From an uncultured Candidatus Saccharibacteria bacterium (GTDB lineage: Bacteria; Patescibacteriota; Saccharimonadia; Saccharimonadales; UBA4665): a stretch of DNA of 64,000 nt. Where the stretch lies: assembly GCA_964494495.1 (NCBI GenBank), contig CAZBQZ010000003.1, forward strand, positions 6,900 to 70,899. Direction: 5' to 3'. The notes beneath the pieces are model-generated. The model searched no databases, was not told the origin of the DNA, and saw only the letters and a list, made by a program, of their open reading frames with translations. Below, one piece after another: positions 4,326-62,200 of this stretch (within the stretch, counting starts at the first letter, position 1; each line of letters begins with the position of its first letter). A program made the translations under genes and the position numbers.

Positions 4326-4335
4326 GGAGATATCT

Positions 4336-38478: not shown

Positions 38479-39588
38479 ATGAAGAAGCATCACATTGTTA
38501 TTGACGCGCGTATTCGACGCAGCAGCACCGGTCGCTACACAGATCGCTTAGTTACTCACCTGCAAAATTTAGACGATTTCAATCGCTACACCATCCTGGT
38601 ACAGCCCGACGACCCCTGGAAGATGCACTCCCCTGCCTTTACAACCCTCCCCTGCCCCTATCCTCAATTTTCATTTAACCCCCTGCACCAGTTGGGCTTT
38701 GCCTGGCAGCTATACCGACTAAAGCCAAGCCTGGTGCACTTTACGATGACGCAACAACCCCTGCTCTACTTTGGTAATATCGTTACCACCACGCACGACC
38801 TCTTGATGTTTTACTTTGTACGGCGCGGCACCACACCCATGGTGGTGTACTGGGTAAAAATGCGCTTATACCATTTCCTTATGTGGTGGAGCCACAAAAA
38901 ATCGAACCGCATAATTGTACCAACTCATGGTGTGGCCAAAGAGTTAATTACCATGCAGCCCTTTACCAAAAAGAAGTTGGCAGTAACATACGAGGCCAGC
39001 GAGCCGCCACTCCCAATGCCCGCAGTCAAGCCCGCCGACGCGCCCAAAGAATTTATCATGTACCTGGGCAATGCCTTTCCGCACAAAAACGTTTGGAAGT
39101 TAGCACAAGCTTTTGATGTACTCCACCATGAACATCCCAACCTGCACCTGGTACTGGTGGGTAAAAAAGAAAAACACTACGAAGAGCTAGAGCAACAAGT
39201 AACCACCCTTGCCTCGCGCGATTTTATTCATATAACCGGGTTCTTGCCCGACGAGCAAGCCAAATGGCTGTACACTCACACTCGGGTGTTTGTTACCGCG
39301 TCGTTGGGCGAAGGTTGGGGTCTGCCTGGCCTAGAAGCCATGGCGCATGGTGCACCAGTCGTTAGCAGTGGTGTCAGTGTTATGCCCGAGGTGTACGGCG
39401 AGGCTGCCCTTTACTGCGACCCACACAGTGCTGCCGATATCGCCGACAAAATCGACCAGGTGCTCACCAACTCCACCTTGCGCGACAAACTCATTGCAAA
39501 CGGCGCCAAACAGCTCAAAAAATACTCCTGGAACAAAATGGCCGAGGAAACGCTGACAGTATACAAAGCAGTGTTGCGCGACAACTAA
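38479..39588 (+). CDS. GT4 glycosyltransferase (WbaZ/WbdB-like)
   Basis: GRYT, TTHDL, YLGNAFPHKN, EGWGLPGLEAM and YSWNK motifs. Confidence 0.92.
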   Translation: MKKHHIVIDARIRRSSTGRYTDRLVTHLQNLDDFNRYTILVQPDDPWKMHSPAFTTLPCPYPQFSFNPLHQLGFAWQLYRLKPSLVHFTMTQQPLLYFGNIVTTTHDLLMFYFVRRGTTPMVVYWVKMRLYHFLMWWSHKKSNRIIVPTHGVAKELITMQPFTKKKLAVTYEASEPPLPMPAVKPADAPKEFIMYLGNAFPHKNVWKLAQAFDVLHHEHPNLHLVLVGKKEKHYEELEQQVTTLASRDFIHITGFLPDEQAKWLYTHTRVFVTASLGEGWGLPGLEAMAHGAPVVSSGVSVMPEVYGEAALYCDPHSAADIADKIDQVLTNSTLRDKLIANGAKQLKKYSWNKMAEETLTVYKAVLRDN

Positions 39589-39622
39589 ACGCCTGGTTAC
39601 TCCCCAGCTATACCACAAAAAC

Positions 39623-39651
39623 ATTATTCCAAGGACCAGCCTTGGAATAAT
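39623..39651. repeat. Palindromic hairpin, copy 2 (ATTATTCCAAGG-ACCAG-CCTTGGAATAAT), between convergent genes
   Basis: Perfect 12-bp stem; 23-nt core identical to 735-757. Confidence 0.8.
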
Positions 39652-39670
39652 ATTGCAAATATGTTTTTAG

Positions 39671-40972
39671 CTAGAGGTGTATGGTTTGCCTGGCAGCCGT
39701 AAAGCCTAAAGCACCGCGCGCTGGTTGCGTGTAATGTAGCGTTTCGTCCCGAAGTGGTGCCTGATAGGCGCTGTTTGCGTTTGCCACAACGAGGCGAGTA
39801 CCGTTAGTAGTGCCTTTATCTTGCACGTGCACCGTTACCGCACCCGGATCGCCGCTAACAGAGATAAAAGCGTGATCCCTCGAAAGCTGTGTGTCTGGAT
39901 CTTCGCCAAAGCTGGTTCTCCAAAAGGTCCTGCCCACACTCAAGCTATCGCTGATGTCGGGCGAGACACGAATACCCTTAGCAACAAACGGTTCTGGACG
40001 CAGCGCAATAAAGCGGCTTGCATCGCCTGTTTGACGGTAGTAAGTCATAGCTTCTTCTGCTTGCTCGAGGTAACGTTGTGTTACAGTTACAAACCGTTGT
40101 CTGTCACCCAACAGATCGCCACCGGGCATAAACTGGCGTGGTTTGTCGCCATATAGGCGCACACGGCGGTCAATAATATACAGTGCATCTGCGGGCTTCT
40201 GTTGTTCGTTGCCGGGTGCAAGCTCGACTTTTGCAATCTGTTCACCATCCATACCGTACCTGGCCAACATCATATCGCGCGTTGCGAGTGGTGGACGCCC
40301 GCGGAGTGATTCGCCGTGCTCGCTCGGTTTGTGATCGTCGCGATGAATAAGGTGCCCTTCTGGGCGGCCAATAACTTGGGGTGTAGCATCATCTGGTAAA
40401 GCCTCGACAATAATCGGCCGATACCCTCGGGCATCGCGTGGCGACAACTGCCAGTTTCCGCTATAGGCGAGTGGTGTGTTGGGTGCACTTGGAGCCAAAA
40501 GGTATGTGCCGTTTGTCGACGTATCGTCAAATCTAATCTGGCCATATTCGATGCTAACACCAACATGTTCGCGGGATACTAGCTTATCGTCAAGTCCAGT
40601 GTTGCGACCAATAGCTAGTCGCCCGTTCTGCGCATGGGGGATTTTACCTATCGGCCGTACTGCGCCATCTTCCTCGGGGTGTACGACGACAAAATCACGA
40701 ACATTGCCGTGCTCGCCGGTACCATAGCTTACCCCTACAATAGGCAACACTTGGCGGCCAACGGTCATAAAGCCGACTAAGTCTTGTTTTGCATGGCTTC
40801 CTTCAAAACTCGCATACGAGAAATCGGGGCTGAGTCGCGTGTGTTCGCCGTTTGCAAGAGTAACTTCGCGGTTACCAGGGCTCTGTTCAACCCACATTTG
40901 TGGTTCGGTTGGTGCTGCAGGAGCAAGATTTTGATGTGGTACCGGAGAGATGCCGGGCTGAAAAGTTGCCAT
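39671..40972 (-). CDS. Tandem FHA-domain protein, no signal peptide or TM
   Basis: Two FHA signatures: IGR...VSREH...DTSTNGT and VGR...LSRDH...DKGTTNGT. Confidence 0.85.
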   Translation of the reverse strand: MATFQPGISPVPHQNLAPAAPTEPQMWVEQSPGNREVTLANGEHTRLSPDFSYASFEGSHAKQDLVGFMTVGRQVLPIVGVSYGTGEHGNVRDFVVVHPEEDGAVRPIGKIPHAQNGRLAIGRNTGLDDKLVSREHVGVSIEYGQIRFDDTSTNGTYLLAPSAPNTPLAYSGNWQLSPRDARGYRPIIVEALPDDATPQVIGRPEGHLIHRDDHKPSEHGESLRGRPPLATRDMMLARYGMDGEQIAKVELAPGNEQQKPADALYIIDRRVRLYGDKPRQFMPGGDLLGDRQRFVTVTQRYLEQAEEAMTYYRQTGDASRFIALRPEPFVAKGIRVSPDISDSLSVGRTFWRTSFGEDPDTQLSRDHAFISVSGDPGAVTVHVQDKGTTNGTRLVVANANSAYQAPLRDETLHYTQPARGALGFTAARQTIHL

Positions 40973-41008
40973 ATACCGCTCTATTTGTTTTTGTTAGTTA
41001 CAATAACA

Positions 41009-41037
41009 AATGTAGCACTTTATTGACTTACTGTCAA
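41009..41037 (-). promoter_or_regulatory. Promoter TTGACA-N17-TACATT for the FHA gene; -35 overlapped by palindrome TTGAC-N5-GTCAA (41023-41037)
   Basis: Hexamers and spacer counted; a second inverted repeat TTTGTTA-N7-TAACAAA lies at 40990-41010. Confidence 0.7.
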
Positions 41038-41048
41038 ATTGTATATGC

Positions 41049-41504
41049 TTACTCTGCCGCGGGCTTGAGAACAATATGCCTGTCGCGGCCTTCACCAGCA
41101 GACTCGCTGACAATGCCAAAATCTTGGGCCAACTTGTGAATGGTGCGGCGATCGGCAGCGCTCATAGGTTTAAGCTCCATGGGCTCTTTGCCTTCTTTTA
41201 CTCGCTTGACCCATTCCTCGGCACGGTCGCTCAGACGCTTGGCGCGCTGTTTTTTGTACTCGGCAACATCAACGTTAACGCGGTTGTATTCGTAGCCTTG
41301 GTTTTTAAGCGCGCTGCTAACCAAAAACTGCATGGCGCGCATATTGTCGCCTTTTTGGCCAATCAAGAAACCATTAAGGTGAGTTGATGGAACTTCTAGT
41401 TCGATGACATCGTCTTCGTAGCCGGCATGAACATCGGTGTTCAATCCAAAAAACGATAGGAGGTCTTCGAGGTACTTCTTAGCGTAACGGATTGCTTCTT
41501 CCAT
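41049..41504 (-). CDS. jag: Jag/KhpB RNA-binding protein (KH + R3H), short form
   Basis: LIGQKGDNMRAMQ KH loop and PMSAADRRTIH R3H motif; position after yidC. Confidence 0.92.
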   Translation of the reverse strand: MEEAIRYAKKYLEDLLSFFGLNTDVHAGYEDDVIELEVPSTHLNGFLIGQKGDNMRAMQFLVSSALKNQGYEYNRVNVDVAEYKKQRAKRLSDRAEEWVKRVKEGKEPMELKPMSAADRRTIHKLAQDFGIVSESAGEGRDRHIVLKPAAE

Positions 41505-42895: not shown

Positions 42896-43033
42896 TTACT
42901 TAGATAGTTCGACGCGGCCCTTAGAACGGCGGCGAGCAAGTACGGCGCGACCGGCGCGGGTAGCCATGCGCTTCATAAAACCGTGCTCTTTAGCACGTTG
43001 ACGCTTTTTGGGTTGGTAGGTTCGTTTTGGCAT
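42896..43033 (-). CDS. rpmH: 50S ribosomal protein L34 (not in ORF track)
   Basis: Manual translation: [45 protein letters not shown]. Confidence 0.97.
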
Positions 43034-47614: not shown

Positions 47615-49297
47615 TTATTGGTCGGATATTTGGCTAAGCATACCAGAATCGTACACGGTAGCCCCAGTACTGTTACTGAGCACCAGTTGTAAATCGGTGA
47701 TATTGTCGTAGTTGATGGTGGCGTCGTATGTGGCGTCGTCTATAACAACGGTAAAGGTTGCTGTGTTGCCCGTGGTGCTGGTTCGATCGCGCGGCAAGAA
47801 GTTTACATTTTTGATAACAATTGATCTTGGCGCAATGTTGGTTTTTTGCGCAAAGCCGCCAAGCGCCAACTTGATGTCGGTAATTTGAGCACTGGTAATA
47901 CCGTTGTCGACCAGCCTTTGTAACCCAGTGTAATCTGGCTCTGTCTGTAGTGGAGCATTACCCTGCTTATCGTTTAGTAGCTGGTACGCATTGATCCTTT
48001 GTGTGTCATTGCTTCCAGTAATGCCGCTAAACATAACACCTTGCGGCGTACCATAGACTTGCGAAGGCGCGATTACCTTTGACGTAAAAAGGCTTCGTAA
48101 CGAGAATTGCCCATTGGTTTTTGCCACAAAGCTATAGAGAGCGGCGCTTGTTGTCATATAGGTGGCGCCTTTGTAAGACGTCCATCCGGTGACATTAGAT
48201 AGGCTGTAAAGGAACGAAAATGTTCCACCACTGTAGTAATAAAAATCGTAACCGTCAGGTTGCTGGGCAATGTAGTAGCCAGTACTTATCTTGTAGACGG
48301 CGTCGGCCATAAATCCCTTGGGCAAGGTTATGGTACCTCGTAAATTACCCGCGAGGTCGTACTCGTACACATATGCTTGTGCGGGTGTTACGGTTTTTTG
48401 ATCTGATTGTTGTTCTAGGGTTTGTGGCTGCCCCTCGCCTGCGTCGCCATCGGTACTTCCAGAACCGGTATAGAGGACAATACCCTGATCGTTATCGGCA
48501 AAGCCGGCAATGTGGGCGGTTTTGGGTGGCGATACGATAGTGCCTGTAGTATCAGTGACTCCATGCATAATGTACAGTTTGTTGTTGTGACTAAACAGTA
48601 GTCCATATTGCGCTAAGGCTGGATCGCTGGGCATGACCAGCGCTGGCTGATCGCTTTCTATAAGCAAATTTGCGCTTGCGGGTAACGAAGCCGGAGTAAT
48701 GGTTTGGGCTACGACATCTAAATAAACCAAACGATTATCGGTTGTAAAACCTAGCAAGCCACCAGTATAAGGTGCTAACCCACTAAACTCCTGGCCGTTA
48801 AATAGCGTGCTGGTGGTCGAAACAAAAGCCGTAGACAAAGCGTGCTTGGTAACGGTTGTTTGTCCGCTGCAGGTATACGAGTACACGACACCCTGGACTG
48901 TAAACGGGCAGCTTTGGGTGCTGGTGGCCAGTTGTTTGATGCTTCGTTGCTCGCCCGACGGCGTGGTTAGTTGCACGGTTTTGTTACCGGTAATTGGAAT
49001 AACATCTACCGAAGAGACATTGCCGCTACTGGCGCTAACTTGCACAGTCCCCTTGCCAAGGCGATAGCTGCGCGTTTCTCCTGGAAGCATTGTTATCTTG
49101 GTGTCCTTAGTGTTTGGGCGCGATATAGTGACGGTAATTTGGCTGGTAGCGCCACCCGCCGTTGATCCCTTAATCTCTAGGATGCCCGAGTTTGCTCGAC
49201 CAACCAGCCATAGTACGACGAGCAAGACAACAAGCAGGCCGCCAGCAACAATTACACCAAACAATATTCGTTTTCTATTAAACTTTTGTGGTTCCAT
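47615..49297 (-). CDS. Membrane-anchored extracellular hypothetical protein (N-terminal TM, beta-rich), last gene of the T4SS-like cluster
   Basis: Single TM at about aa 11-33; S/T/G-rich beta-strand pattern; TAATG overlap with the upstream gene. Confidence 0.75.
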   Translation of the reverse strand: MEPQKFNRKRILFGVIVAGGLLVVLLVVLWLVGRANSGILEIKGSTAGGATSQITVTISRPNTKDTKITMLPGETRSYRLGKGTVQVSASSGNVSSVDVIPITGNKTVQLTTPSGEQRSIKQLATSTQSCPFTVQGVVYSYTCSGQTTVTKHALSTAFVSTTSTLFNGQEFSGLAPYTGGLLGFTTDNRLVYLDVVAQTITPASLPASANLLIESDQPALVMPSDPALAQYGLLFSHNNKLYIMHGVTDTTGTIVSPPKTAHIAGFADNDQGIVLYTGSGSTDGDAGEGQPQTLEQQSDQKTVTPAQAYVYEYDLAGNLRGTITLPKGFMADAVYKISTGYYIAQQPDGYDFYYYSGGTFSFLYSLSNVTGWTSYKGATYMTTSAALYSFVAKTNGQFSLRSLFTSKVIAPSQVYGTPQGVMFSGITGSNDTQRINAYQLLNDKQGNAPLQTEPDYTGLQRLVDNGITSAQITDIKLALGGFAQKTNIAPRSIVIKNVNFLPRDRTSTTGNTATFTVVIDDATYDATINYDNITDLQLVLSNSTGATVYDSGMLSQISDQ

Positions 49298-50670
49298 TAT
49301 TTTTTAGGCAACGCCTCCCATATTTTTAGCAGTAGATCCATAAAAGCTGGGTCGCGGCATTCGGCGTTGCCACCAGTGTGCGGTGTGCCGCTTTTGTCGA
49401 CACACCCGCGGTCGATGTGTAAGTGGGGCCCGCCCCCCCAGCACTTAGTACCATAGTCCGCCGTGGCTACTGTGCCAATTTTTTGTCCACCTTTTACTGT
49501 TACGCCATTAGCAATGCCAGGTGCTGCCAGCAAGTGTCCGTACCAGTAGTAGTGCTTGTCTTTGGTAGAGTAAAACTGAATTGAGTTGCAGTACTTTCCA
49601 TCCGCGCCGCAACTACTTGGGTTGCAATAGTGTGGGTTAAGGCTGTAGATTTTGCCGTCAGTAATTGCGTATTCATCTTGGCCAGCTACGCCTGCGTACA
49701 TGAGGTCAAACGCTGGCGACAGTGGTGCATGGTGGCAGGTGCGGATTTGCGCGCTGTTGCCGTACACGTCGGTGTAGGTGCCTGTGGTGCCACGCGCCGG
49801 GTAGCCTGGTACGACGCCTGCGGCGCTGCAGGGCAAACCAACGTAATCGCGTTGGTTGCGTGGGGCTAGTGGGAAGTAATAGCCGTCGGCGCTAACAGCG
49901 CCTTGGTCCCCGCCACAGTCTGTTGCCGCAGAGGGGTCAACGTTATTGGTCTGCGGTACGGATGATCCATAGTTAGTAAACACTTGCTTGGCATATTCTA
50001 TGCGCTTGACCATGGGCGGGTCGCCCATTTTTTCGCCGGCGATTTCGAACTGATCCTGAAAGTAGAAGGTTACAGCATCAATTGTTTGCATGTCAGCTGG
50101 TGGTGCGAGCATGGTTTTTAACACGGCGCCTTTGTTGCTATTGAGCTCGCTCCAGGTAAAATTGAGCTGCAAGGTTAGGTCGTCCCATGGTTTGTTCTGC
50201 GATTTAGCAAACGCCTGCAGATTATCCCACCGGCCATTAAGCCACTGGGCTATACCATGTGCTCCAATTGAGTTAATGTCGCCAGGGTTAACGTTGGACT
50301 CCTGCATAAAGTTGCCTACCATTGCCGAGGCATCTAGGGCGGCACGCTTGTCCCCCACCTTTACGAGTTCACCAGACAAAAAGTTAAATGCCTTTTGAAT
50401 ATTGTCGTTGCCGTTAAGGTTGACATTGGCGGTTTGGTCGACTGGCGAACATGCGGTTTGCGTAGGGTCGTACCAAGGACTGTCGGTTTGTAGGCTGTAG
50501 ATGTCTTCGGCGTCGGCGGCTTCTTCGTTGCCGGTGGTTGGTGTGGTAAATTCGGCGAATGCCTGATTGCTCGTTGTTGTTAGTACTAAGATGAGAACAA
50601 AAGCAGAAGTAACAGTAGCGATGCGCTTAAGGTATTGGCCAATATGGAGCCGCGAAAGACGCTGTTTCAT
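49297..50670 (-). CDS. Secreted bifunctional peptidoglycan hydrolase: phage-tail-lysozyme-type domain + M23-like peptidase
   Basis: N-terminal signal/TM; MVGNFMQES and GIAQWLNGR (phage tail lysozyme family); CHH...AFDL, YAITDGKI, YWYGHL, GQKIG and PHLHID (M23-like). Confidence 0.8.
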   Translation of the reverse strand: MKQRLSRLHIGQYLKRIATVTSAFVLILVLTTTSNQAFAEFTTPTTGNEEAADAEDIYSLQTDSPWYDPTQTACSPVDQTANVNLNGNDNIQKAFNFLSGELVKVGDKRAALDASAMVGNFMQESNVNPGDINSIGAHGIAQWLNGRWDNLQAFAKSQNKPWDDLTLQLNFTWSELNSNKGAVLKTMLAPPADMQTIDAVTFYFQDQFEIAGEKMGDPPMVKRIEYAKQVFTNYGSSVPQTNNVDPSAATDCGGDQGAVSADGYYFPLAPRNQRDYVGLPCSAAGVVPGYPARGTTGTYTDVYGNSAQIRTCHHAPLSPAFDLMYAGVAGQDEYAITDGKIYSLNPHYCNPSSCGADGKYCNSIQFYSTKDKHYYWYGHLLAAPGIANGVTVKGGQKIGTVATADYGTKCWGGGPHLHIDRGCVDKSGTPHTGGNAECRDPAFMDLLLKIWEALPKK

Positions 50671-53138
50671 TATAGCGCCCCTGTTAGGTGTGCGGTGTCG
50701 TAGCTTTCGGCCATGTAGACGCGCCAGTGTAATGCTTCGTCACTACGGAGGGTTCCTTCCGAACAATCAGCATCGGTGGGTTTTTGCGTCTGCAATATGT
50801 ATGCTGGGTCGTAGCATGGGCCGTATTTTTTGTTAAGGGTATCCAGATTTGGTTCGATGGTCTCAATCAGGCCGGGGTGTGCTGCATCATTGCTGGCTAC
50901 ATCAAAGCTAGGGTCGTCGTCTATGCGATTAAGTTCATCTAAAGTCCAACCCCAGTTGTCTATACCGTAGGAGTCAGGTCGCATAACAGTAGCTGCAGCA
51001 AAGGCATGATTGCGCGCCGTAAAGATTCCGGCTAGGCTACCAATAAGCCGCTGGGGCGATCCAATAACCGACATTACAGATGTTAAACCGCTTTGGATAG
51101 ACGAAGCCATGCCGCTAAACGATGACGGCACCATGCCTACAACATTGCCGAGGAGCGAATACGGATTGTCGATTGCAAAGTAGCGTTCGCTGAACGGGCT
51201 TTGACTATTTTTGTCACGCAAGTCGGCGTAAGCCACAATATTGCCGTCGGCTGCTTCTTGGGCATTCATGGGTGCGCCGAACGTCATTTGACGATTGCCC
51301 ACCTGCTGTGTGTAATCTTCGGCAACGGCATTTTGATTGTAGCGGTCGGCACCGGTGGCCAGGCCCGAGAAGCTATTTTCGTCATGAATAAGGCTGTCTA
51401 TGAGGCTGCCAATTAACTCGCCAATACCCACACTGGCGCCGAACTGCACTGCACCCTCGACGGCAGCACGGATAGCTTGAGCGACACCCTCCTCGGTGCC
51501 GGCCGTAATAACGGCTATGGTTATTTCGGCGAGTGCTTCGCCGTCCTGCACGTACTCGTTAAGCAGTGCGTCGCAGCCAACATTTACAATACTGTCATGT
51601 ACTTTGCCCAGGCCTGGTATGACGCCGGTGAGCACACTACCAGTTAATACTTGATCGGCAAGCGCTACGGCGTCTTTAAACTGGACGCCGGGCGGCAGGA
51701 CGCTGGGTATGGCTGCCATCTGGGCTTGATCGGCAGTGCTAAGTGGTTGGCCCGTGGCTTGTTTAAAGAGTGCTGCACTTTGAGCGTCTTCGGTGCCTCC
51801 CCGCCCATCCCAGAATGCATTTTCGGCACCCACTGCCTGCTGTGTGGTGTCACCGGTTTTAGTTTGGTCGGCGCTGGTTTGGGTTTCGGCTCCCATGCGG
51901 GCTACTTGCTGCTCGCGCCCAGCGGAGTCGATCGAGTTATTTAGCGAGTGTAGGACACACACCAGTGTAATGATGGTTACTGCCGCAGATGCACTGCGTA
52001 CGCCACGAATTCGTCCGGCAAGCTTGCTACGCACCTCGCCCGGCGTGGTGTTTCTAACATAGGCGTCTATGTCGGCCTGTCGTTGTTTTTCGCGGTTTTC
52101 GTCAATATCGGAGTTGCCGGTTTTTGGTGCTTGTTCGCCGCCCTCTACCTGCTCGACAGTATCGGTGGCGTTTTTAGCTCGAGCTTGTTCGTCGTTGAGG
52201 TTATTGTAATCCTTACCCTTGTTAAACCACTTAACCAGGCGAATGCCTGTTGCCTGGTAGAACCCTTTGTAGACGCCCCACCTAAAGCGTCGGTTATTAA
52301 GTTGGAGAGCTTCGGTTAAGTTGGCCTTTACGTCTTGTGCAAAAGCGGACCTCACCTTGCGCGCTTGCGACCTAGAGAGATCGTCGTAATTGTCTTTTTG
52401 AAACAGCTTGTTGGCGTAGTCGTCTAAGTAGTAGCCTTTGCCATCAACCACCACCCCCTGAAACGAGTTAGTGCGGCCCAAAACACCGCCCCATCCTCGG
52501 TTAGCACCCTTAAAATCAAACTTGAGCACGTCATCGTTGCCTAGCTGTGCCAATTGTTTTTGAGGATTTATGCCGACAAGTTTATAAAACAGACTGCTTT
52601 GCGGCGGTTGAAACCGGCCGGTGCTGTTGCTGGTAAGGACTGACGCGTCAAAGATAGTGCGCGAGAACTGCCTGTCCATAACATAGGTAAACCGTGCCAT
52701 ACCAATTGAGCGCAAGATAGTTGCAAAGTGTACATTTTTGTAAGGGGCAATGAGCAGCACCATGATAATAACAACGCCAAAAAACAAGAACACACCACCC
52801 GCGCCTGCGCCAGCAAACATCAGCGTTTTTTTGTGGCGATTTAAAAAGCCTCCGGCATCTTTTTTACCGCCAACTTTTTGTTTCATAAATTTGGTGTGGT
52901 CGCCTGGGCCTTCGCGGTCGCCTGGCTTGTAAAAGCCGCCATTAAGCGGGTCAAATTTTGGCTTTTCTTTCTTGCCCCCTTCTTGTTTCTTTAGATCGGA
53001 GGGGCTAGTATCTTTGCCTTGTCCGCCACCGGTAACGCCTATGTTTTTTTCTTCGGCGGCGCTAAGGTCTCTGCCGCTTTGTATAGGTTGGTCATCGTCG
53101 TAGATTTGGTGTTTGTCGCGCCCGTCAACCAAAGCCAT
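50670..53138 (-). CDS. Large membrane protein of the T4SS-like cluster, function unknown
   Basis: 822 aa; charged N-tail, TM at about aa 105-130, further hydrophobic helices; tightly spaced with virB4 (9-nt gap) and coupled to the hydrolase gene by a TAATG overlap. Confidence 0.75.
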   Translation of the reverse strand: MALVDGRDKHQIYDDDQPIQSGRDLSAAEEKNIGVTGGGQGKDTSPSDLKKQEGGKKEKPKFDPLNGGFYKPGDREGPGDHTKFMKQKVGGKKDAGGFLNRHKKTLMFAGAGAGGVFLFFGVVIIMVLLIAPYKNVHFATILRSIGMARFTYVMDRQFSRTIFDASVLTSNSTGRFQPPQSSLFYKLVGINPQKQLAQLGNDDVLKFDFKGANRGWGGVLGRTNSFQGVVVDGKGYYLDDYANKLFQKDNYDDLSRSQARKVRSAFAQDVKANLTEALQLNNRRFRWGVYKGFYQATGIRLVKWFNKGKDYNNLNDEQARAKNATDTVEQVEGGEQAPKTGNSDIDENREKQRQADIDAYVRNTTPGEVRSKLAGRIRGVRSASAAVTIITLVCVLHSLNNSIDSAGREQQVARMGAETQTSADQTKTGDTTQQAVGAENAFWDGRGGTEDAQSAALFKQATGQPLSTADQAQMAAIPSVLPPGVQFKDAVALADQVLTGSVLTGVIPGLGKVHDSIVNVGCDALLNEYVQDGEALAEITIAVITAGTEEGVAQAIRAAVEGAVQFGASVGIGELIGSLIDSLIHDENSFSGLATGADRYNQNAVAEDYTQQVGNRQMTFGAPMNAQEAADGNIVAYADLRDKNSQSPFSERYFAIDNPYSLLGNVVGMVPSSFSGMASSIQSGLTSVMSVIGSPQRLIGSLAGIFTARNHAFAAATVMRPDSYGIDNWGWTLDELNRIDDDPSFDVASNDAAHPGLIETIEPNLDTLNKKYGPCYDPAYILQTQKPTDADCSEGTLRSDEALHWRVYMAESYDTAHLTGAL

Positions 53139-53147
53139 GCCGAATAC

Positions 53148-55049
53148 CTACAGGCTTCCTGGTGTCAGTTTATTTGCCAAATCGATGGTACCACCAACTT
53201 TATCCATACTGCCGGCCTGTATTTGCTGAACTTGGGCGGGGTTGGTAGTAATAAGTGTGGTCTCGGTAGGGCTGGCTACCACCTGGATGTGTACGTGGTT
53301 TTGGCCGGCAAAAAACAGTCCCTGGCCTACCGGGAATTGGCTTAGGCGTTTCTTTTCTTCGCTCGTTAGTTTAAAGACGTCGGCAAGCACGTCTACCGCC
53401 GATGGTGATTGTTTTAGTAAAAATTGCATGCTGGCGTTGGCGACAATGGCGCGGCCCATGCGCGATCCCATAAAGTCTTCAACGTCTTGAGTAATAGTGG
53501 TTATGCCCAAGTTGTACTTGCGGGCTCGTTTAGCTAGGCTAAACAAGAAGTTGGCCGAGTCTTCGTATTTCATCAACTGCCAAGCCTCGTCTACAATAAG
53601 GAGGCGTTTTTTGCGATCGGTTTTGGTCTTGTTCCAGATGTAATTAAGCACGATGTACATGGCAACAGGGCGCAATTCGTCTTCTAGATCGCGAATGTTA
53701 AAGACTACCAGCGGGTTGTTAATGTCGATGTTGCTTTGTTGGCTAAATATACCGGCAAATGTTCCTGTGGTGTATTTGCGCAGACGTTGAGCCAATTGGG
53801 GGCCAGTGCCGCTCATGTGTAACAGCGTGTCGTAGAGGTCGGCAATAGTTGGAGGCAAACCCTGGTGTGTCAGTGGGTCGTTAGTAATGCCGGCGCGTGC
53901 ATAGGTTTCTATGAGCGCGGCGTCTAGGTCGGATTCTTCGACCGGACTGAGCGCCGGTGCCATAACGGCATTGCCGCCTTGCATTTGAGCTTGTGCACCA
54001 CCCATCATCAGACGCAACAAGCCGTGTAGAGTGATGAGGTTGCTGCGCAACGCATTGTCCGCTTCTTCGCTGTCTACTACGCGCGGTAAGTCAAACGGAT
54101 TGATACGCGTGGCCGAACTTAGGCTTAGGCGAATATAGGCGCCGGCAACAGCGTCGCTCATACGTTCGTATTCGTTTTCGGGGTCGATGATAAATATTTC
54201 AGTGCCCATCATCATGCTGCGCAGTGCCTCGAGCTTGACGGTAAACGACTTACCGGCGCCAGACTTAGCAAAGACCACCGAGTTGCCATTTTCTAGGCTA
54301 AAGCGATCAAAAATAACGAGTCCGGAGTTGTGCATGTTAATACCGTACAAAATGCCGCTGTCTTGGCTTAAATCGGCCGAGGTAAACGGAAAGCTAGTAC
54401 TAATAGCGCCCGTGCTCATGTTGCGCCTAATTTGTAGTTGGTCGGTAAATTGCGGCACAGTGCTGTTAAGCCCCTGCTCTTGCTGCGAGCTGGCAGGCTT
54501 GCTAAATACCAACTGTTGTCCGAGCATGGATTCTACCTTATGACTAACAAACTCCAGCTCTTCCAGACTGCCGGCATACACGGTAAAGTAAAAGCCAAAA
54601 CGGAAGAAGCGCTCTTCGCCAACCTGCAGTTTGTCACGCATTTCTTCGGCGTCCAAAATAGCAGCCTGCTTTTGTGGGTCGCGCACACGGCCCTTTTCGG
54701 AGTCAATTTGAATACCGGCTTCCAGCTGGGTGACTTTTTTGCGTAGGTTGTCGAGCACCACCTGGCTTTCTACCGGATATATAAAGAGAGATATATCAAT
54801 AACTTCGTCTAAGTTGACCATGCTGCTCATCCACCCGGTGTACAACTGACGGGGGTAGCCGTATACGTAGTACGTGCGCGCTAGGCGGGTGCCAAGCTGG
54901 AAATAGCTGCTATTAAGCTCAATAGAACTGGGCGCAATAAAGTCGCGCAGTGCGGTAATGCCCTTTTGAAATGCAGCTGCTACTTCTTGTTGCTCGCGTT
55001 GTTGCTGTGCCTGTGCCAGCGCAACCGGATCCATTTGTTTTTTAGCCAT
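53148..55049 (-). CDS. virB4: VirB4/TraE-like type IV secretion ATPase
   Basis: Walker A variant AKSGAGKS, IIDPENEY, INPFD, Walker B LLIVDEAW, KRARKY and TQDVEDF; start set at ATG 55049. Confidence 0.92.
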   Translation of the reverse strand: MAKKQMDPVALAQAQQQREQQEVAAAFQKGITALRDFIAPSSIELNSSYFQLGTRLARTYYVYGYPRQLYTGWMSSMVNLDEVIDISLFIYPVESQVVLDNLRKKVTQLEAGIQIDSEKGRVRDPQKQAAILDAEEMRDKLQVGEERFFRFGFYFTVYAGSLEELEFVSHKVESMLGQQLVFSKPASSQQEQGLNSTVPQFTDQLQIRRNMSTGAISTSFPFTSADLSQDSGILYGINMHNSGLVIFDRFSLENGNSVVFAKSGAGKSFTVKLEALRSMMMGTEIFIIDPENEYERMSDAVAGAYIRLSLSSATRINPFDLPRVVDSEEADNALRSNLITLHGLLRLMMGGAQAQMQGGNAVMAPALSPVEESDLDAALIETYARAGITNDPLTHQGLPPTIADLYDTLLHMSGTGPQLAQRLRKYTTGTFAGIFSQQSNIDINNPLVVFNIRDLEDELRPVAMYIVLNYIWNKTKTDRKKRLLIVDEAWQLMKYEDSANFLFSLAKRARKYNLGITTITQDVEDFMGSRMGRAIVANASMQFLLKQSPSAVDVLADVFKLTSEEKKRLSQFPVGQGLFFAGQNHVHIQVVASPTETTLITTNPAQVQQIQAGSMDKVGGTIDLANKLTPGSL

Positions 55050-55050
55050 A

Positions 55051-56037
55051 CTAACCAAGCTCCCTTTGTAAGTGCGCCTGTGGGGCACTGCCCTGACCCT
55101 TGGTGATAATGTCGGCATTTAGATTACCAAAGTTTTTGAGTTGTTGGCGGGTGGCGGTGTCGGGGTTGTAGGTGTCGTAGTACAGCTCAATGAGCTCTTG
55201 TGTATCGAGGGGTAGGCCCTGAATACCCGATTGCAACAGACCGGCTAGCACCGATTGCACACGGTTGCGCAGTTCGGTTTTGGCTTTTTCTAGGTCGGCT
55301 TCGTTAATAACAACGTGTTTTTCTTTGGAGTTAAATAGATCTAAAAAGCCAGTAAAGAAGTTTTTACTTTGGGTAATAGCCTTTTGAATTTCGATGTGTG
55401 GGAAGTACGGAATAACCACATAGAACTTTTTGTCCATGATGTTGGTTTGCCGAGACAAAAGATCGATATACGAGATGTAATCCTCCATGAGCATTGCCAG
55501 GAGCATGTTGTCGTGCTCGGTGCGGATTTTATCGAGTTTTTCGATGTATGATTGCAGATCAACTTTTTGCGAACGAATAAATATTTGTATTGGAAAATAA
55601 AGCGAGTTAAGAAAACCCTGGTACGAATATTCGACAGCTTCTTGCTCTTGCGGACTCATAAGATCAAAGTTGACGGATTTGACCATCACTACAGAACGGA
55701 ACGAGCCATCGCTCATAATGACAATCCCGTCGCGGATTTCGGCAATTTGCAATGTATTTTGCGTGCTGTTGGGGTTACTGTGGTGAACCGGTTGGGCAAT
55801 TGGGCGTCCGTCTGGGCCAGTTGCAGTGCTAACGGTAGCCCCTGCTCCAGTTGCTGGAGCACCCGGCATGCCAACTGTATTAGTTAAAGCCGCGGCTTGA
55901 TGTGTAAGGTCGCTCACGGCGAGTGGCGGATGTGCTTGCGGCATAGGCTGTTGTACGGTTGGCTGAGGTTGCGGGATATATGGCATGCCAGGCGCAGGAG
56001 CGCCGGCGTTGGGTTGATTGGGTGCGTTTGGGTTCAT
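55051..56037 (-). CDS. T4SS accessory protein resembling the N-terminal non-ATPase part of VirB4/TraE; P/Q-rich N-tail
   Basis: STQNTLQIAEIRDGIVIM, VNFDLMSPQEQ and FLNSLYFPIQI pattern; lies between prgI-like and virB4. Confidence 0.7.
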   Translation of the reverse strand: MNPNAPNQPNAGAPAPGMPYIPQPQPTVQQPMPQAHPPLAVSDLTHQAAALTNTVGMPGAPATGAGATVSTATGPDGRPIAQPVHHSNPNSTQNTLQIAEIRDGIVIMSDGSFRSVVMVKSVNFDLMSPQEQEAVEYSYQGFLNSLYFPIQIFIRSQKVDLQSYIEKLDKIRTEHDNMLLAMLMEDYISYIDLLSRQTNIMDKKFYVVIPYFPHIEIQKAITQSKNFFTGFLDLFNSKEKHVVINEADLEKAKTELRNRVQSVLAGLLQSGIQGLPLDTQELIELYYDTYNPDTATRQQLKNFGNLNADIITKGQGSAPQAHLQRELG

Positions 56038-56054
56038 TATGTAAAGCCAACCTC

Positions 56055-57254
56055 TTAGTGCAATTTAATAACTACTTCATCTTGCGGCGCTGCCCGTTCC
56101 GCTTCGCGGGCAATAGTTGCAACATTGAGATCGTTATTCCGAGATAGTTGTAGTATAGCAGCCTGGCCCTGCGGCGTCACTGCGGGCGGTTCTTGCGGTG
56201 CAGAAACAAGTGGTGCTTGCGGACCGGGGCTGGGCGAAACCAGAGGTAGTGCTTGCGGTGCAGACGTAACGGCTGTCGGTTGCTGCACGGCTCCCTGTTG
56301 AACACTGGGCTGTTGCATTGGTGTGCCTTGAGCAGAGAGCGGTTGGATGGTGTGCAAATGTCCGTAGTAGGAGGTGGTAGGCAGCGATTGACGGCGAGCG
56401 TCAAGCTCGGCAACAATATGTGCTTCGTCGGCAAATGGGTCGGCTGCTGTTTGTTGGGTTTGTGGTTGTGCCGCGCTTGCTGGCTGTGCAGAACTGGGCG
56501 TGACTACCTGCGTATTAAATGTCACCATATTGCCGGGTACACTGGCGCCCTGTGCCGGTTGGTTTAAAAACCAAAAATCGCGTGCCGGTGCGGGCGCTGG
56601 CGCTTCTTGCATGCGTTGCATAATTTGCTCGCGGTGGACTTTAGCGCTTTCCGAAATCATAGTGTCTACGCGATGAGCATCGCGATTGTTCTTTTCGTCC
56701 AGAATGTCGTCTGACGCCATGACTTCTACATTGGATACCGGCTGGGGCAATGCGCTGGGCCCAATAAGGCGGTCGGATTGGGGCTCGACCATGGTTAGCG
56801 ATTGTTGTGAATACAGATTTAGGTTGGCGTTTTTAATAGCCCAACCCCGGCTGTCGATAGTCTCGGCCAGGGCACGCAGGCGGCTTTGTACTTCGGTTTG
56901 TGACAAGCCGTTGGTGTACTCGATATGGACCTGCTTTGGAACAGTTACTGTTACCAGCTCCTTAACGCCGCTTTGGTCCCAAATGCGTCGCCGCGGTTTG
57001 ATAAAAAATCTGATTTTGGCTAATGCCCAAATTTCGGTTGGTTGGTCCCTGCCCCAAGGGAAAGCAAAAAAAGCCGATACAACAGCAATTGGCATAAAGA
57101 TGGCTAGTGCAAACGTCGCATGATGTGTTGCCAAAAAGTAACTTAAATACAAGCAAATAGCCGCTACGCCAGCATAAATAAACTGGCGTAACGACAAAGG
57201 CCCAATAAGTTTGTCCTCAGCCTCTATGTCCTGAATAACCTTATAGGTAGACAT
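56055..57254 (-). CDS. PrgI/VirB3-like membrane protein with long P/Q-rich C-terminal extension
   Basis: YKVIQDIEAEDKLIGPLSLRQF PrgI signature plus two TM helices; TATACT 9 nt upstream of the ATG. Confidence 0.82.
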   Translation of the reverse strand: MSTYKVIQDIEAEDKLIGPLSLRQFIYAGVAAICLYLSYFLATHHATFALAIFMPIAVVSAFFAFPWGRDQPTEIWALAKIRFFIKPRRRIWDQSGVKELVTVTVPKQVHIEYTNGLSQTEVQSRLRALAETIDSRGWAIKNANLNLYSQQSLTMVEPQSDRLIGPSALPQPVSNVEVMASDDILDEKNNRDAHRVDTMISESAKVHREQIMQRMQEAPAPAPARDFWFLNQPAQGASVPGNMVTFNTQVVTPSSAQPASAAQPQTQQTAADPFADEAHIVAELDARRQSLPTTSYYGHLHTIQPLSAQGTPMQQPSVQQGAVQQPTAVTSAPQALPLVSPSPGPQAPLVSAPQEPPAVTPQGQAAILQLSRNNDLNVATIAREAERAAPQDEVVIKLH

Positions 57255-57301
57255 TACCTATATAGTATACCCGAGTTAGTGACTGGCTTGTAGGGGCCTG
57301 T

Positions 57302-59206
57302 TTAAGGAATGTATACGCCCGCGTCGGAGTACGAGGCAACCAGAGCGCCATTAGGAGCGAAGAGCCGCGAGCTGCCATCTGGATAGATAACCCAGTTGCC
57401 TGTGCGTCCATTAAGACGTGAATTAGGGACGAGCACCGAGCCATCCGGGCGTAGTAAGCTGGTGGCATAACCGGACTCGTTTACTGCAAACGGGTCGCCT
57501 ACGCGCATACGGGCTACACGGAACTGCGATCGGTTTTCGCGGATACGCTGAATAATTATATTTTGTAGGTGGTTGTTACGCAGGCCCTGGGCCACAGCAA
57601 TCTGGTTGCGCAATTCGCGGCCCGCGGCCATAATCTTGCGCTCTTCGTGTGAGTACTGCCCTTCGTCGATACCAGGAGCGTGGTTGCTAATAACTGTGGC
57701 TTCGGCAACTTGCTGAGCACGTACGCGGGACTGCAAGGTAGTTAGTTGTGCATCGACGGCAGTAAGTTGTACTGCCGATTCGGCAGCTCCAGCCTGAGCT
57801 TGATCAATGCGTAGTTCGTGAATATGGGTAACATCGGCTGCGGCGGCACGGGTGCGAACTACCTCTTGTACGATGTCAAAGTGGTTAACCTGGTTGTCTA
57901 CTTCGGCTTCGTCGGAAATATCTAACTCGTCAATTTCTGCCCTGTGAGGTGGAGTTACGGGTCTGGTTGGGGCGCGCCAAGGTCTGCCATTGGTGTACTC
58001 GCGCACCATATGGCCACTGGCGCTGTCGAAGTGCAGTACGCTGCTGTCTTCGTATAAAGTCACCTGTTGGGTCGGGTTGTACGGATCGATGTTTACTGTA
58101 ATGCTGCCGTCGTGGTTAAGTCGCCGCTCGTATGGAGCGCTGGCAACTTCACTACTCATGGCTACCCGCTCCTCTAGGCGGATTCGGGCAACGATAAGCT
58201 CATCGTACAAGTCGGAACGAGCCGTAGAGCGTGGCGCTAGCAATTCAAGAGTATTAGCGGCTTCATCCAGGTTTTGGCTTACGGCAGCGGCTTGGTCTAC
58301 GTCAGGTTCGCCGCTCAAATACCAGCCAACTAAATTGTTACGGGCACTGTCTAGATTGGCCTCAACTGTTTGTACATTTTGTACGTGATCTTCTAGCACG
58401 TTGGCAATTTGTCCGATTTCGTACGATAGACCCTCGGATGAGATCTGCAATGCACCAGCTTGTCTGTGTAGGTCATGTAGCGCTTCGGCACTTAAGCCAG
58501 GCAGCTTCGATGGTTTGTCGACATTGGCTTTGCCGCCATTTTTCGTGTCTGAAATCTGGCGTAGCGATTGGTTTATTCTGGCCTCGTGCTCCTTGCGGTT
58601 TTTTGCTACACGATCAGCGTAGGCTGCAGGCGTTTCGCTGGGGAATTTTTGCGTTTGGCGGGGGCCGGCTGCAATACGATAGAGCGTTCGTGCTTCGAGA
58701 ACATCGAGTTCGTTCTGTCGAACTTCTGCCGCCTGGCCTGTTACGTCACTGTAAGAATCGGCGTTACGTTCGTACGTCTGACTGCCATTAAGCGCATGGC
58801 TCAGTAGCGGCACGAGCCTGTCTGGGTCTCCCTCGTTAATAAGCGTGATGATGGTATCGCGCGTTTCGGCAGTGCGGTTTTGGCTAAGTTGTGCAGCTCG
58901 TGCACCGTGATCACGAAGCGCGTTACTTGCGGGCCCCATTACCATTGGAGACATGTTTGGGTCTGCCGCCATGCGCGCTCGCAGCAAGTCTGCATGCCCG
59001 CCAGGCTGTTGATTGGCAACTGTGTGGTTTGCAGTCCCTACCCGCGTGCGAAGTTCCTGGAGTTGTCTGAGGATATTAGCTTGAGTCGTGGCTGCGTCCT
59101 GCATGCTATAAGGTTCACCCACGCTGGGCATGGGCGTGTCGATCATACCATCGAAATGCTCCGGGGTTCCAGGGTACGCATTAAAGGGATTTATGGGGTT
59201 TGTCAT
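57302..59206 (-). CDS. 634-aa orphan soluble protein (coiled-coil plus duplicated beta module) inserted in the T4SS cluster; candidate effector
   Basis: No signal peptide or TM; own promoter; two similar about 50-aa beta-hairpin modules. Start set at ATG 59206. Confidence 0.75.
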   Translation of the reverse strand: MTNPINPFNAYPGTPEHFDGMIDTPMPSVGEPYSMQDAATTQANILRQLQELRTRVGTANHTVANQQPGGHADLLRARMAADPNMSPMVMGPASNALRDHGARAAQLSQNRTAETRDTIITLINEGDPDRLVPLLSHALNGSQTYERNADSYSDVTGQAAEVRQNELDVLEARTLYRIAAGPRQTQKFPSETPAAYADRVAKNRKEHEARINQSLRQISDTKNGGKANVDKPSKLPGLSAEALHDLHRQAGALQISSEGLSYEIGQIANVLEDHVQNVQTVEANLDSARNNLVGWYLSGEPDVDQAAAVSQNLDEAANTLELLAPRSTARSDLYDELIVARIRLEERVAMSSEVASAPYERRLNHDGSITVNIDPYNPTQQVTLYEDSSVLHFDSASGHMVREYTNGRPWRAPTRPVTPPHRAEIDELDISDEAEVDNQVNHFDIVQEVVRTRAAAADVTHIHELRIDQAQAGAAESAVQLTAVDAQLTTLQSRVRAQQVAEATVISNHAPGIDEGQYSHEERKIMAAGRELRNQIAVAQGLRNNHLQNIIIQRIRENRSQFRVARMRVGDPFAVNESGYATSLLRPDGSVLVPNSRLNGRTGNWVIYPDGSSRLFAPNGALVASYSDAGVYIP

Positions 59207-59242
59207 GCTTATATTATAAGCATATACTTGATGAAAAGTCAA
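59205..59242 (-). promoter_or_regulatory. Leaderless promoter TTGACT-N18-TATAAT-N6-ATG with two palindromes
   Basis: -35 at 59242-59237, -10 at 59218-59213; TTGAT-N5-GTCAA at 59228-59242; ATGCTTATA-T-TATAAGCAT at 59205-59223. Confidence 0.72.
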
Positions 59243-59267
59243 TTACAAGTAGACGTTTGTAATGGTG

Positions 59268-62200
59268 CTACGAAGCATCGGGGTTGTAGGGGTCGTACGG
59301 CTTGGCGCCATATGCGTCCAAGTTGCGACGCGAGCGCTCGGTAGCTGGGTTGGTAGCGGGGTTTGGAGCGTAAATTGGTTTGCCAGTACTTGGGTCGCGC
59401 ACCAAAGCGGGGTTGCCGTTTGCGTCTATAACTGTTTCGCCCACCTGCGGGAAGTACGTTGTGCCATCTGGGCGTGGAATACCGCTGGTAATTCGTACGT
59501 CGCCAGGCTGGTATGTCTCTGTAAGGTAGGTGACTTCTGGTTGGTCGGTAACAGGGTTAACCTTAAGCTGCGAAGCACTGGCTTCCATACGGATACGTCG
59601 GCGGCCGCTCGGACTGGCATAGACGTATTGGGGTTGGTTGCCGTTAGGAGTGTATTGAGGGTTTACGACCACAGTACCAGTATTGGCGCCGCTAGTAGGC
59701 TGTATAACCTCTGTGCTGGCAATTTCCATGTTGTTGACCGAGCCGTATGGTGCAGCCTGTTCGATCTTGTCGATACCAGCTGTAAGCTTGTCGAGCTCGT
59801 CGCGGGCTCGGGCTACTGCGGCAGCATCCGTAGAAGTGTCACGCGTAACTTCGCGGCGCTGGAAGACGCGCCTGGACGCTTGCGACATATTGCGCAATGC
59901 CTGTGGCTTATCGCGAGCAGCGGTTACGCCATCGATTTCGAGCATAGCGTTCGACACGGCTTCATCAACGGCGACATCGTCAACGACTCCGCCGCTAGCT
60001 GCCATACCATCGTACAACTTCATCTGAGCGTTGTAGCCTATCTTTAGGTCGTGGCGGCCGTTAGCGGCCACAGCGTTTAGCTCACCAAGTAACGAGGCAG
60101 CCTGGCCACGGTTTGCTCCAGCCACCCCAAATACTGCTCTTTGTAGCTCGGCCTCGTCGCCAAAACCTGTACTGGTAGCGCCCAGGCGTCGCACTGCGTA
60201 CACCTGTCGTGCTTTGCTCCAGCCACCAGCTGCCCTGGCTGCCGAAATAGCATCTTCCATGTTTCGTGCGTCGACTGCTGCGTCGCCGGTATTGTACGTA
60301 CTGGCAAACCTTGTTGCTAGCCCAGCGCGAGCTTCTGCCTCGCTACCAAACGAGAGAGCATGGTGTTGTAAGTCGTTTTCTTTAGTAGCCTGGGCGCGTG
60401 CACTTTGCGCATGCTTGGCGGCAACCATGTCACGGTGTTGTGTAAATGCTTGCTGGCGGGTCCCCTGATTGGTTAAGAACCCCAATTTGCTCTCGGCATG
60501 GCCGAATGCAGTGGCGCCCTCGGTGCCGGTGTTGAACGCCCCAATACCCCGGTTAAGCGTGCGACTAAAAGCGTTATTGCCAGCAAATTGGTTAAAGCGT
60601 CGTCCTTCGCCCATTTTTTCCATATTGTTCTTGAGCTGGTTGGCGCGGAAGTTTTTAAGTCGGTCAAAGGCGCCCTTGCTACGGTCGTTAACTACACCAC
60701 CTACCGTGGCCACCAGGCCGCCTGCCAGACGGAAAGCTGTTGGAATCAAGAAGTACGGTGCAAAGTAAGCAATTATGAAGATAAACTGGCCAATGACCCC
60801 ACCGTTGTTGACGGCACCAGCCACCTGCGCAAACACGTGACCAACGGCAATAAAACCAGACATAATTGGGAACATAGCGAGCGCGCCGCTTGTGCTATCA
60901 AGCCAGATCTTTCCCCCTTTTCGAGTGTTGGGTAATACGTAGAGGGCAATGGCCATGGGTGACAAAATAACTAGGAAAATAACTGCCATTTCTCGGAAGA
61001 CTAACAGTATAAAACCAACAAATACAGCAAGTAGCGCGGTAAGCGCAAAGCTCAGTAATCCAAACGCGCCCAAGCCAATAAATGCCACACCACCGAGCAC
61101 TGCCAGCGCATCTGATGTGCCCGCACCAATGTGGGCAGCCCCCAGCACACTAAACGGCTTATATATAAGTGCTCGTACGCCGTAGCCTAAGACGTCGGAC
61201 GCAGTAATGGCTGCTTTCATGAGTTGCCACGAAATCGCGATGGCAATCACGGCCACGAGTAGCCTGGGCAATATCTTTTTTATAGCATAGGCGTCCAGAA
61301 CGTCGGCCCCTAACGCCTGCGAAATAATCATTACCAGGCTAGCAATTACAATAACTGCCATCGCTAAAATGCGCACGCTATTCCATGCTTTATAGAAGCA
61401 CGGCCCAGGGTTACTGTCACCGCAGGCGCCCTTTTCATTTAGGTATGTGTCGACACTAATGTTAAGCATATCGTTGATGGCGCTGTCGAACGAGCCAGCC
61501 AGCGAGATTGCAGCTTGTGCAATCGGGCAAATGAGCCATGACAACGAAATTTTAAAGATATCGCATACTAGCTGGTTTGAGTCGGCGGTGCCTGAACCCG
61601 AGTCGTCTATGGCGCCAGTCCCACCACTATACAAAGCGGCGTCGGTAATTGCATAGACGTGCAGGTCGCCAAATGTAACCGCACAACCGGTACCGGTTTT
61701 GCGCAGAGTCCAGTTAATGGGGAAAATTTTGCTGGTTTGTTTGTCTAGTGGGTTTCCATCCCCAGCTCTGGCCCGGCCAAGGTATGCGCAGCTAGTGTCT
61801 GCGTGGTCGTAGTAGGTTGGATTTTGAGTACCTTGGTTAACGTCGTAGTTGCCAATGTAGAGTGCCTCGTGTCCGTCGCCACCAGGGAATGCCGTAACTA
61901 GGCCTTTACCATCGGTATAGAACCAAATTTCTGAATTAGTGCGGTCGGGTAGCAAGTATTCCGGCGATGGCAACCCAGGTTGGCTGGTGTTCCCTCCCGA
62001 AGGATCTGTCACTATCGAGCCATTTGCTGTGTAGTCATAAAACAACAAACCGGTACAGGCCACACTATCGATACCGGCATTGATACGCTGAACAATCTGG
62101 GCATTGGTTAGCGTTCCATTGCCATTGTCGTTATATGTCAGGTTGAAGCCGGCACTTTTGAAGGCAGGATCTCCACAGACCGGGGCATCTATGAATGGTA

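Follow-up and report, generated by a model that had tools for sequence, protein, structure and literature searches.

Why would a cell that appears unable to write or erase phosphothreonine (pThr) encode a protein built to read it? The question is raised by P0001, a protein of 433 amino acids encoded within a 64,000-nucleotide stretch of DNA (hereafter the window) from an uncultured Candidatus Saccharibacteria bacterium, contig CAZBQZ010000003.1 of assembly GCA_964494495.1. Bacterial FHA domains normally accompany Ser/Thr kinases. P0001 has two such domains, each with an intact set of pThr-binding residues, and no kinase was found within the window. It is a new, Saccharibacteria-restricted FHA variant, a tandem extended-FHA protein encoded in an accessory slot of a kinase-less genome. 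The preferred reading, albeit one held tentatively, is that P0001 is a fast-evolving accessory protein acting as a bivalent pThr reader on the phosphoproteins of another cell, the host. The assembly comprises 1.29 Mb in 47 contigs, with a G+C content of ~50% and a completeness of 94.7%; its relatives are soil Saccharimonadales metagenome-assembled genomes, and the same genus includes a closed genome, CP025011.1 (Candidatus Saccharibacteria bacterium YM_S32_TM7_50_20).

The gene and the parts of its product are arranged as follows, with the basis of each assignment in brackets.

39671–40972, minus strand: coding sequence of the tandem-FHA protein P0001, 433 amino acids, ATG start (open reading frame, ORF).
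40796–40972, minus strand: residues 1–59, P/Q-rich N-terminus, modelled as disordered (model, sequence).
40493–40795, minus strand: residues 60–160, FHA1, modelled as a beta-sandwich with extra N-terminal strands (Pfam, local profile, model).
40376–40492, minus strand: residues 161–199, linker of low model confidence (model, family alignment).
39953–40375, minus strand: residues 200–340, alpha/beta mid module preceding FHA2 (model).
39773–39952, minus strand: residues 341–400, FHA2 core (Pfam, local profile, sequence).
39674–39772, minus strand: residues 401–433, C-terminal tail, modelled as disordered (model).

The first-pass annotation, made from the letters alone, had proposed two FHA domains with their binding residues intact, and this assignment is borne out. 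P0001 matches the Pfam FHA model PF00498 over two stretches at 33.1 bits (cut-off 20.7, E 7.8e-8), and a local hidden Markov model (HMM) built from the FHA cores of P0001 and its relatives recovers both domains, at residues 122–173 (E 5.7e-14) and 347–409 (E 8.4e-21). Read directly from the sequence, the phosphate-binding set comprises G122-R123, S133-x-x-H136 and N154-G155-T156 in FHA1, and G347-R348, S364-x-x-H367 and N390-G391-T392 in FHA2. The two halves of the protein align with one another mainly across the FHA core (hhalign probability 96%). No second FHA protein was found in the genome when the local FHA-core HMM was applied to its 7,930 ORFs of at least 60 amino acids.

Outside the two domains, the protein is P/Q-rich over its first 35 residues and has no hydrophobic segment (maximum Kyte–Doolittle value over 19 residues, 1.27), in agreement with the annotated P/Q-rich N-terminus and lack of an export signal. 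It contains no cysteine, and 36 arginines against 9 lysines. P0001 is thus predicted to be a soluble, free-standing protein. Residues 1–59 include a short motif, P-E/Q-x-W ... G, common to the full-length relatives, and the linker retains the family-invariant residues P161, A169, W174, A181 and R185. The mid module (residues 200–340) has no match in Pfam even at E<=10; it is also present in an FHA-PP2C protein of a related genome, G048.

A single-sequence AlphaFold prediction gave no usable model, with a predicted local distance difference test score (pLDDT) of 31. An AlphaFold2 model derived from an eight-sequence family alignment reached a mean pLDDT of 60.9, with a beta-sandwich at residues 60–160 and, within residues 200–400, an alpha/beta module followed by a second beta-sandwich (343–397). 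Block-mean pLDDT in the beta-rich segments was ~48–88, and residues 1–59 (pLDDT < 50), 161–198 and 403–433 were modelled as disordered. The sole Foldseek match to this model was a local one to the FHA domain of APLF (probability 0.82, 63 columns), and the search with the whole model returned nothing else. The best sequence-profile matches in the PDB, to OdhI, GarA and the FHA domain of a GGDEF protein, were marginal (E ~0.02), which argues that the FHA domains of P0001 are highly divergent. Such matches give no sign of recent descent from actinobacterial FHAs. Recent transfer from Actinobacteria was rejected also because no close homologue exists among 1.84e9 representative proteins and the full-length relatives lie among Saccharibacteria-like neighbours.

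A full HMMER search of these 1.84 billion representative proteins returned five matches. Four constitute a family with P0001, three of them full-length (P0002, P0003 and P0005) and one represented by its C-terminal half (P0004), whilst the fifth is a generic multi-FHA protein. Word-indexed protein searches yielded nothing beyond P0001 itself and a single relative. In the family alignment the four relatives are 25–29% identical to P0001 and 34–48% identical among themselves. Across 15 members the GR/SxxH/NG set is kept in ~18 of 20 FHA domains, at an overall identity below 30%. What is common to the family is the FHA core together with an N-terminal extension, and this extended-FHA unit is combined with variable partners: a second FHA, a PP2C or unknown domains. 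On the evidence of these searches the family is rare and found only in Saccharibacteria, and no published description of Saccharibacteria-encoded FHA proteins was found in the literature searched.

The genomic locations of the relatives vary. The P0003 gene lies between lysK and greA, and that of P0002 between a stand-alone response regulator gene and rpmA. The contig encoding P0002 is syntenic with contig C15 of the window genome; the neighbouring proteins are 56–75% identical, the FHA proteins only 28.7%. The slot defined by pyrG and the response regulator was examined in 40 relatives with local HMMs. Between the response regulator, which follows pyrG, and rpmA or a methyltransferase gene, this slot is hypervariable across Saccharimonadales, holding mutually unrelated ORFs of 165–703 amino acids (loci L150–L189). 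In the window genome itself the slot (C15:21754–23314) holds an unrelated 248-amino-acid ORF with a ParB-like DGAHR motif, noted by eye; this ORF has a counterpart in genome G060 at 39% identity. Family members in or near the slot are listed below.

G003, a closed genome of the same genus: protein of 407 amino acids, in or near the slot, FHA match at 26.2 bits.
G054: protein of 350–355 amino acids, in or near the slot.
G026: protein of 605 amino acids, in or near the slot.
G439: protein of 513 amino acids, in or near the slot.
G048, L009:709–2079, minus strand: FHA-PP2C protein of 457 amino acids, in or near the slot.
G041, L185:5588–7093, plus strand: PP2C-FHA protein of 502 amino acids, in or near the slot.

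The absence of a kinase noted for the window extends to the whole assembly, in which no Hanks kinase, RIO kinase or PP2C was detected. The Pkinase model gave one match, at 18.8 bits, to an APH-fold phosphotransferase of 218 amino acids (C2:42190–42921, plus strand). A second APH-fold phosphotransferase (C20:13066–14079, minus strand, 324 amino acids) emerged from a search with a loose motif for the catalytic loop; beyond these two, no protein of kinase fold was detected in the genome. The motif HRDxKxxN occurs in no ORF, and neither the RIO1 nor the PP2C_2 model has a match. When relatives' kinase and PP2C loci supplied the phmmer queries (every ORF of at least 200 amino acids), no kinase or PP2C domain emerged in the window genome; what matched were the PAP2 and LPG-synthase portions of fusion proteins only. 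The whole-genome family search had used a loose pre-filter which missed the P0001 gene itself, so that negatives from that search alone are weak; local HMMER searches of all ORFs were for this reason added for the window genome. That this approach can see kinases where the clade has them is shown by the 9 of 61 relatives that exceed the Pkinase cut-off; nine relatives exceed that of PP2C_2.

Two kinase-like arrangements were observed among the relatives. Loci L013 and L014 (genomes G060 and G042) encode fusions of ~800 amino acids in which a kinase-like domain is joined to a PAP2 phosphatase and to a membrane domain of LPG-synthase type; in the window genome the PAP2 and LPG-synthase parts are separate genes and the kinase-like part is missing. 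At L017 and L018 (G024 and G020) a gene of the PP2C_2 family precedes one that encodes an atypical kinase-like protein of 427–440 amino acids with C-terminal CxxC motifs, and the pair is conserved between these two genomes.

The nine other genomes that carry the FHA family, including the closed genome G003, have no Pkinase match at E<=1. With no Pkinase found in any of the ten carriers, a requirement for a cognate Hanks kinase is excluded. It could still be supposed that P0001 belongs to an endogenous pThr circuit, as an intracellular adaptor scaffolding two phosphoproteins, the kinase being APH-fold, RIO/Bud32-like or encoded in the missing 5% of the genome. Such a circuit would agree with the conserved pThr pockets, the lack of an export signal, the two APH-fold phosphotransferases and the frequent position of family genes after a conserved stand-alone response regulator; the sporadic occurrence of Hanks kinases and PP2Cs in relatives indicates, moreover, that the clade can run signalling of this kind. 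It is nonetheless somewhat unlikely, given that no carrier genome has a Pkinase match, the closed one included, that RIO1 has no match and that no kinase or phosphatase gene adjoins a family gene at any locus examined. Patchy presence and low identity would also be unusual in a core signalling adaptor. Were the endogenous explanation right, it would mean an unrecognised Thr-phosphorylation system in bacteria of minimal genome.

The position of the P0001 gene bears on its history. As annotated, it follows the minus-strand order rpmH (42896–43033), rnpA, yidC and jag, from which dnaA, dnaN and recF diverge. The gene and its immediate surroundings are as follows.

38479–39588, plus strand: convergent GT4 glycosyltransferase gene, downstream flank.
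39589–41048, no strand: 1.46-kb insertion of promoter, gene and terminator between the jag and GT4 stop codons.
39620–39654, minus strand: intrinsic-terminator-like hairpin of 15 pairs with a T-tract, 3' of the P0001 stop codon.
41009–41037, minus strand: near-consensus sigma-70-like promoter site, TTGACA-17-TACATT, in which TG precedes the -10 hexamer (extended -10), 12 bp past the jag stop codon.
41049–41504, minus strand: jag/khpB, 151 amino acids, KH and R3H domains only, upstream flank.

The DNA downstream of jag was compared in 20 genomes of the same genus, in which Jag is 80–87% identical. A convergent GT4 gene follows jag in 15 of the 20 (14 of them with a spacing of about 50 bp or less, the other with 132 bp), four have other short inserts or gaps, and one is arranged differently. 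An FHA homologue follows jag at none of these 20 loci, so the gene is not vertically conserved at this position. Comparison of these loci indicates that the 1.46-kb segment is an insertion peculiar to the window species. Among 65 wider Saccharimonadales loci with both genes the jag-to-GT4 spacing is at most 132 bp in 43, whilst the remaining 22 hold unrelated inserts of 0.37–1.76 kb (an acyltransferase, an epimerase-like protein and unknown ORFs). The jag–GT4 interval is therefore best regarded as a variable slot bordering the Wzy/GT2/ABC-2/Wzt glycan cluster, of which GT4 is the first gene. The first-pass annotation had also set store by the proximity of jag, in view of the phosphorylation of Jag/KhpB by Ser/Thr kinases in several Gram-positives. 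This link falls away, since the adjacency is an accident of insertion and the Jag of the window consists of KH and R3H domains only; the N-terminal/linker region, on which pneumococcal KhpB bears its StkP phosphosite, is missing.

Of the 80 wider jag loci, one carries an FHA gene, which is convergent and distinct from that of P0001. This is L110 (DASTAH010000044.1), from another Saccharimonadales genus, where a 406-amino-acid FHA protein is encoded directly after jag at 3456–4673 on the minus strand. Its C-terminal domain was considered by eye as transglutaminase- or cysteine-protease-like (GVC...GDGHAW...D), an assignment unsupported by Pfam and PDB sequence searches.

The P0001 gene and both junctions of the insertion are present at 0 mismatches in contigs from four soil-metagenome runs of two studies. 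These exact copies from independent runs argue that the gene is no assembly chimera. A transposon-like insertion was rejected, there being no convincing direct or inverted repeats flanking 39589–41048, and no tRNA or integrase marks the segment. A phage or plasmid origin was likewise rejected for want of matches to phage records or viral contigs, and the PADLOC models of anti-phage defence matched neither P0001 nor five relatives.

A gene in such a place might be a passenger of the variable slot, with a role in defence against phages or other bacteria, or cargo of no current function. The unrelated inserts at 22 of the 65 related loci, the occurrence of family members in another hypervariable slot and the IS1595-like transposase that adjoins the FHA-PP2C gene of G048 would all suit this explanation. 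It is nevertheless very unlikely: the searches for defence systems, phages and viral contigs are against it, as is the fact that P0001 is a single gene with no partner genes, whilst the intact ORF, the conserved pocket residues and the identical sequence in four soil samples argue for a function.

Comparison with known FHA systems places P0001 apart from each of them. GarA (Rv1827 of Mycobacterium tuberculosis) and OdhI (Corynebacterium glutamicum) are, like P0001, small soluble proteins combining FHA with a disordered N-terminus, and they are among its best PDB matches, albeit at a marginal E ~0.02. Their FHA domain is single, however, an ETTS phospho-switch is present at the N-terminus, and the kinases PknB and PknG are dedicated to them. 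P0001 contains two FHA units, shows no motif recognisable as a phospho-acceptor, and is encoded in a genome where no kinase could be found. The FHA proteins of the actinobacterial FhaA/FhaB(FipA)–PstP–PknA/B cluster for division and wall synthesis, cited in the first-pass annotation as biology of the presumed hosts, share the intact pThr pockets, but differ in their linkage to a Hanks kinase and PP2C and in their membrane anchoring or long linker; the NCBIfam FhaB model matched only the G054 relative, at 18 bits against a cut-off of 125. Two FHA domains per polypeptide are found also in the Firmicute type VII secretion protein EssC, at its N-terminus, and in Rad53. In EssC they are fused to a membrane FtsK-like ATPase and are not known to keep the canonical pThr residues, and in Rad53 a kinase lies between them. 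P0001 by contrast is free-standing and kinase-less, with both pockets kept.

These systems give rise to a further explanation, that P0001 is a phospho-independent regulator or scaffold whose FHA pockets bind acidic or unphosphorylated surfaces on proteins of its own cell, in the manner of GarA/OdhI with metabolic enzymes or, structurally, of the FHA-like domains in the secretion machines EssC and YscD. No kinase would then be needed, and none was found. GarA uses its phosphate pocket to bind KGD, GDH and GltB although these partners are not phosphorylated, and the best, though weak, PDB matches of P0001 include OdhI and GarA; the YscD cytoplasmic-domain model also gives a weak match, at 12.2 bits. 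Yet switches of the GarA type still need a kinase in order to be turned off, and in EssC and YscD the FHA domains are joined to a membrane or ATPase portion and as a rule no longer carry the GR/SxxH/NG set, unlike this family of well-kept pockets and its soluble, free-standing member P0001. Nor does the gene adjoin genes for a type IV secretion system (T4SS) or pilus in any genome examined. A phospho-independent role thus appears rather improbable.

Fusions of FHA and PP2C domains are known in bacteria, and the G048 and G041 relatives join the same extended-FHA unit to a PP2C. In P0001 a second FHA unit replaces the catalytic domain. The genomes G048 and G041 have no detectable Pkinase. EsrG1 and EsrG2 of Schaalia odontolytica comprise a (pseudo)phosphatase, a disordered region and an FHA domain (PMC13622651), an order also seen in the PP2C-FHA protein of G041, the likeness being one of domain order. 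EsrG, however, belongs to the host, where its gene has kinase, phosphatase, MoxR and vWA genes as neighbours; P0001 is encoded by the epibiont without such partners.

If neither writer nor eraser is present, where might the ligand be? Cultured Saccharibacteria are ultrasmall obligate epibionts of Actinobacteria, and these hosts are rich in Ser/Thr kinases and FHA proteins. Since the cell seems to have no means of adding or removing pThr marks, the most likely ligands of P0001 are the phosphoproteins of another cell; an FHA reader without detectable writer or eraser in a group of epibionts points in that direction. The two pockets would clamp or cross-link proteins that are doubly phosphorylated or paired pThr proteins, and P0001 could in this way sequester components of host pThr signalling, for example those of a kinase-to-FHA pathway that senses the threat from Saccharibacteria. 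A pathway of this kind was described in a 2026 preprint: Schaalia hosts sense Saccharibacteria by kinase-dependent phosphorylation of Thr152 on the FHA protein EsrG1, which drives Esx-mediated host defence, and a second epibiont strain avoids triggering the response through an unidentified strain-specific factor (PMC13622651).

For P0001 to act there it would have to be exported from epibiont to host, by the T4SS or another route, a step which is wholly inferred. Epibiotic growth requires the patescibacterial T4SS, for which no substrates are known (10.1101/2025.01.22.634366). One may go further and consider the family as a whole as hypervariable and host-directed, with the extended-FHA unit as a pThr-seeking head coupled to a second FHA domain (a clamp), a PP2C (an eraser) or other domains, exported into an actinobacterial host, possibly by the T4SS, and blunting Esr-type threat sensing or wall and division signalling. 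Taken in full this scheme is quite improbable. If true, the FHA family would be the first candidate effectors of the patescibacterial secretion system and a counter-defence to the Esr-type pathway. A family of small, soluble proteins of predicted pThr binding, which should be easy to express and is located in variable slots, does offer a testable class of candidates for epibiont counter-measures.

The proposal of the first-pass annotation, a reader of host pThr, is accordingly upheld in part. Of the findings which that annotation named as fatal to it, two were looked for, a cognate kinase in the genome and vertical conservation of the gene at this locus, and neither was found. The circumstantial case for foreign phosphoproteins thus stands and gains some strength from the low identity of P0001 to its relatives, its variable-slot location and the PP2C-fused relatives in kinase-less genomes. 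The argument drawn from Jag is lost, and no evidence of secretion or of dependence on a T4SS came to light.

Several observations weigh against foreign phosphoproteins as the ligands. That none of ten carriers has a Pkinase is not significantly different from the ~80–85% of relatives which are kinase-less. At 94.7% completeness, and with an insensitive family search, atypical protein kinases such as the two APH-fold proteins could have escaped. Several family members lie directly 3' of the conserved stand-alone response regulator gene, a possible hint at endogenous signalling, and GarA/OdhI show that an FHA pocket can also accept partners that are not phosphorylated. The actinobacterial host is taken from cultured lineages and may not apply to the window organism, a member of a soil lineage. 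As regards export, P0001 has no recognisable secretion signal, the patescibacterial T4SS having no defined translocation signal, and its gene is unlinked to the T4SS genes, which lie ~7 kb off with rnpA-yidC-jag, oriC/dnaA, dnaN and recF between. Finally, no RNA-seq runs holding the P0001 gene were found.

The T4SS-like cluster itself, of Gram-positive type, lies beside oriC on the minus strand at 47615–63757 of the window. In Patescibacteria a T4SS commonly lies close to the origin (10.1101/2025.01.22.634366). Four of its proteins, of 560, 822, 646 and 1340 amino acids, have no Pfam match. Recognisable components are the following.

53148–55118: VirB4/TraG-P-loop ATPase.
56055–57254: PrgI-family protein.
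49297–50670: lysozyme and M23 hydrolase.

With regard to expression, the promoter TTGACA-N17-TACATT proposed in the first-pass annotation is present at 41037..41009 on the minus strand. One promoter-like match was observed in the region against a mean of 1.6 in shuffled sequence. As shuffling gives as many matches, it is only the position of the site that supports it. A palindrome over the -35 box, TTGAC-N5-GTCAA, was considered as a shared operator and rejected: TTGAY-N5-RTCAA occurs four times in the genome against 4.8 expected, and is thus attributable to chance.

The core of the terminator hairpin, ATTCCAAGGACCAGCCTTGGAAT, is one of six copies in the genome of an element resembling repetitive extragenic palindromic (REP) sequences, which differ by 0–2 mismatches and have an identical asymmetric loop. 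The copies of ATTCCAAGGACCAGCCTTGGAAT are located as follows.

Window: 39626–39648 and 735–757.
Elsewhere in the genome: C4:12979, C5:4267, C12:12225 and C30:5947.

Both window copies lie between convergent genes.

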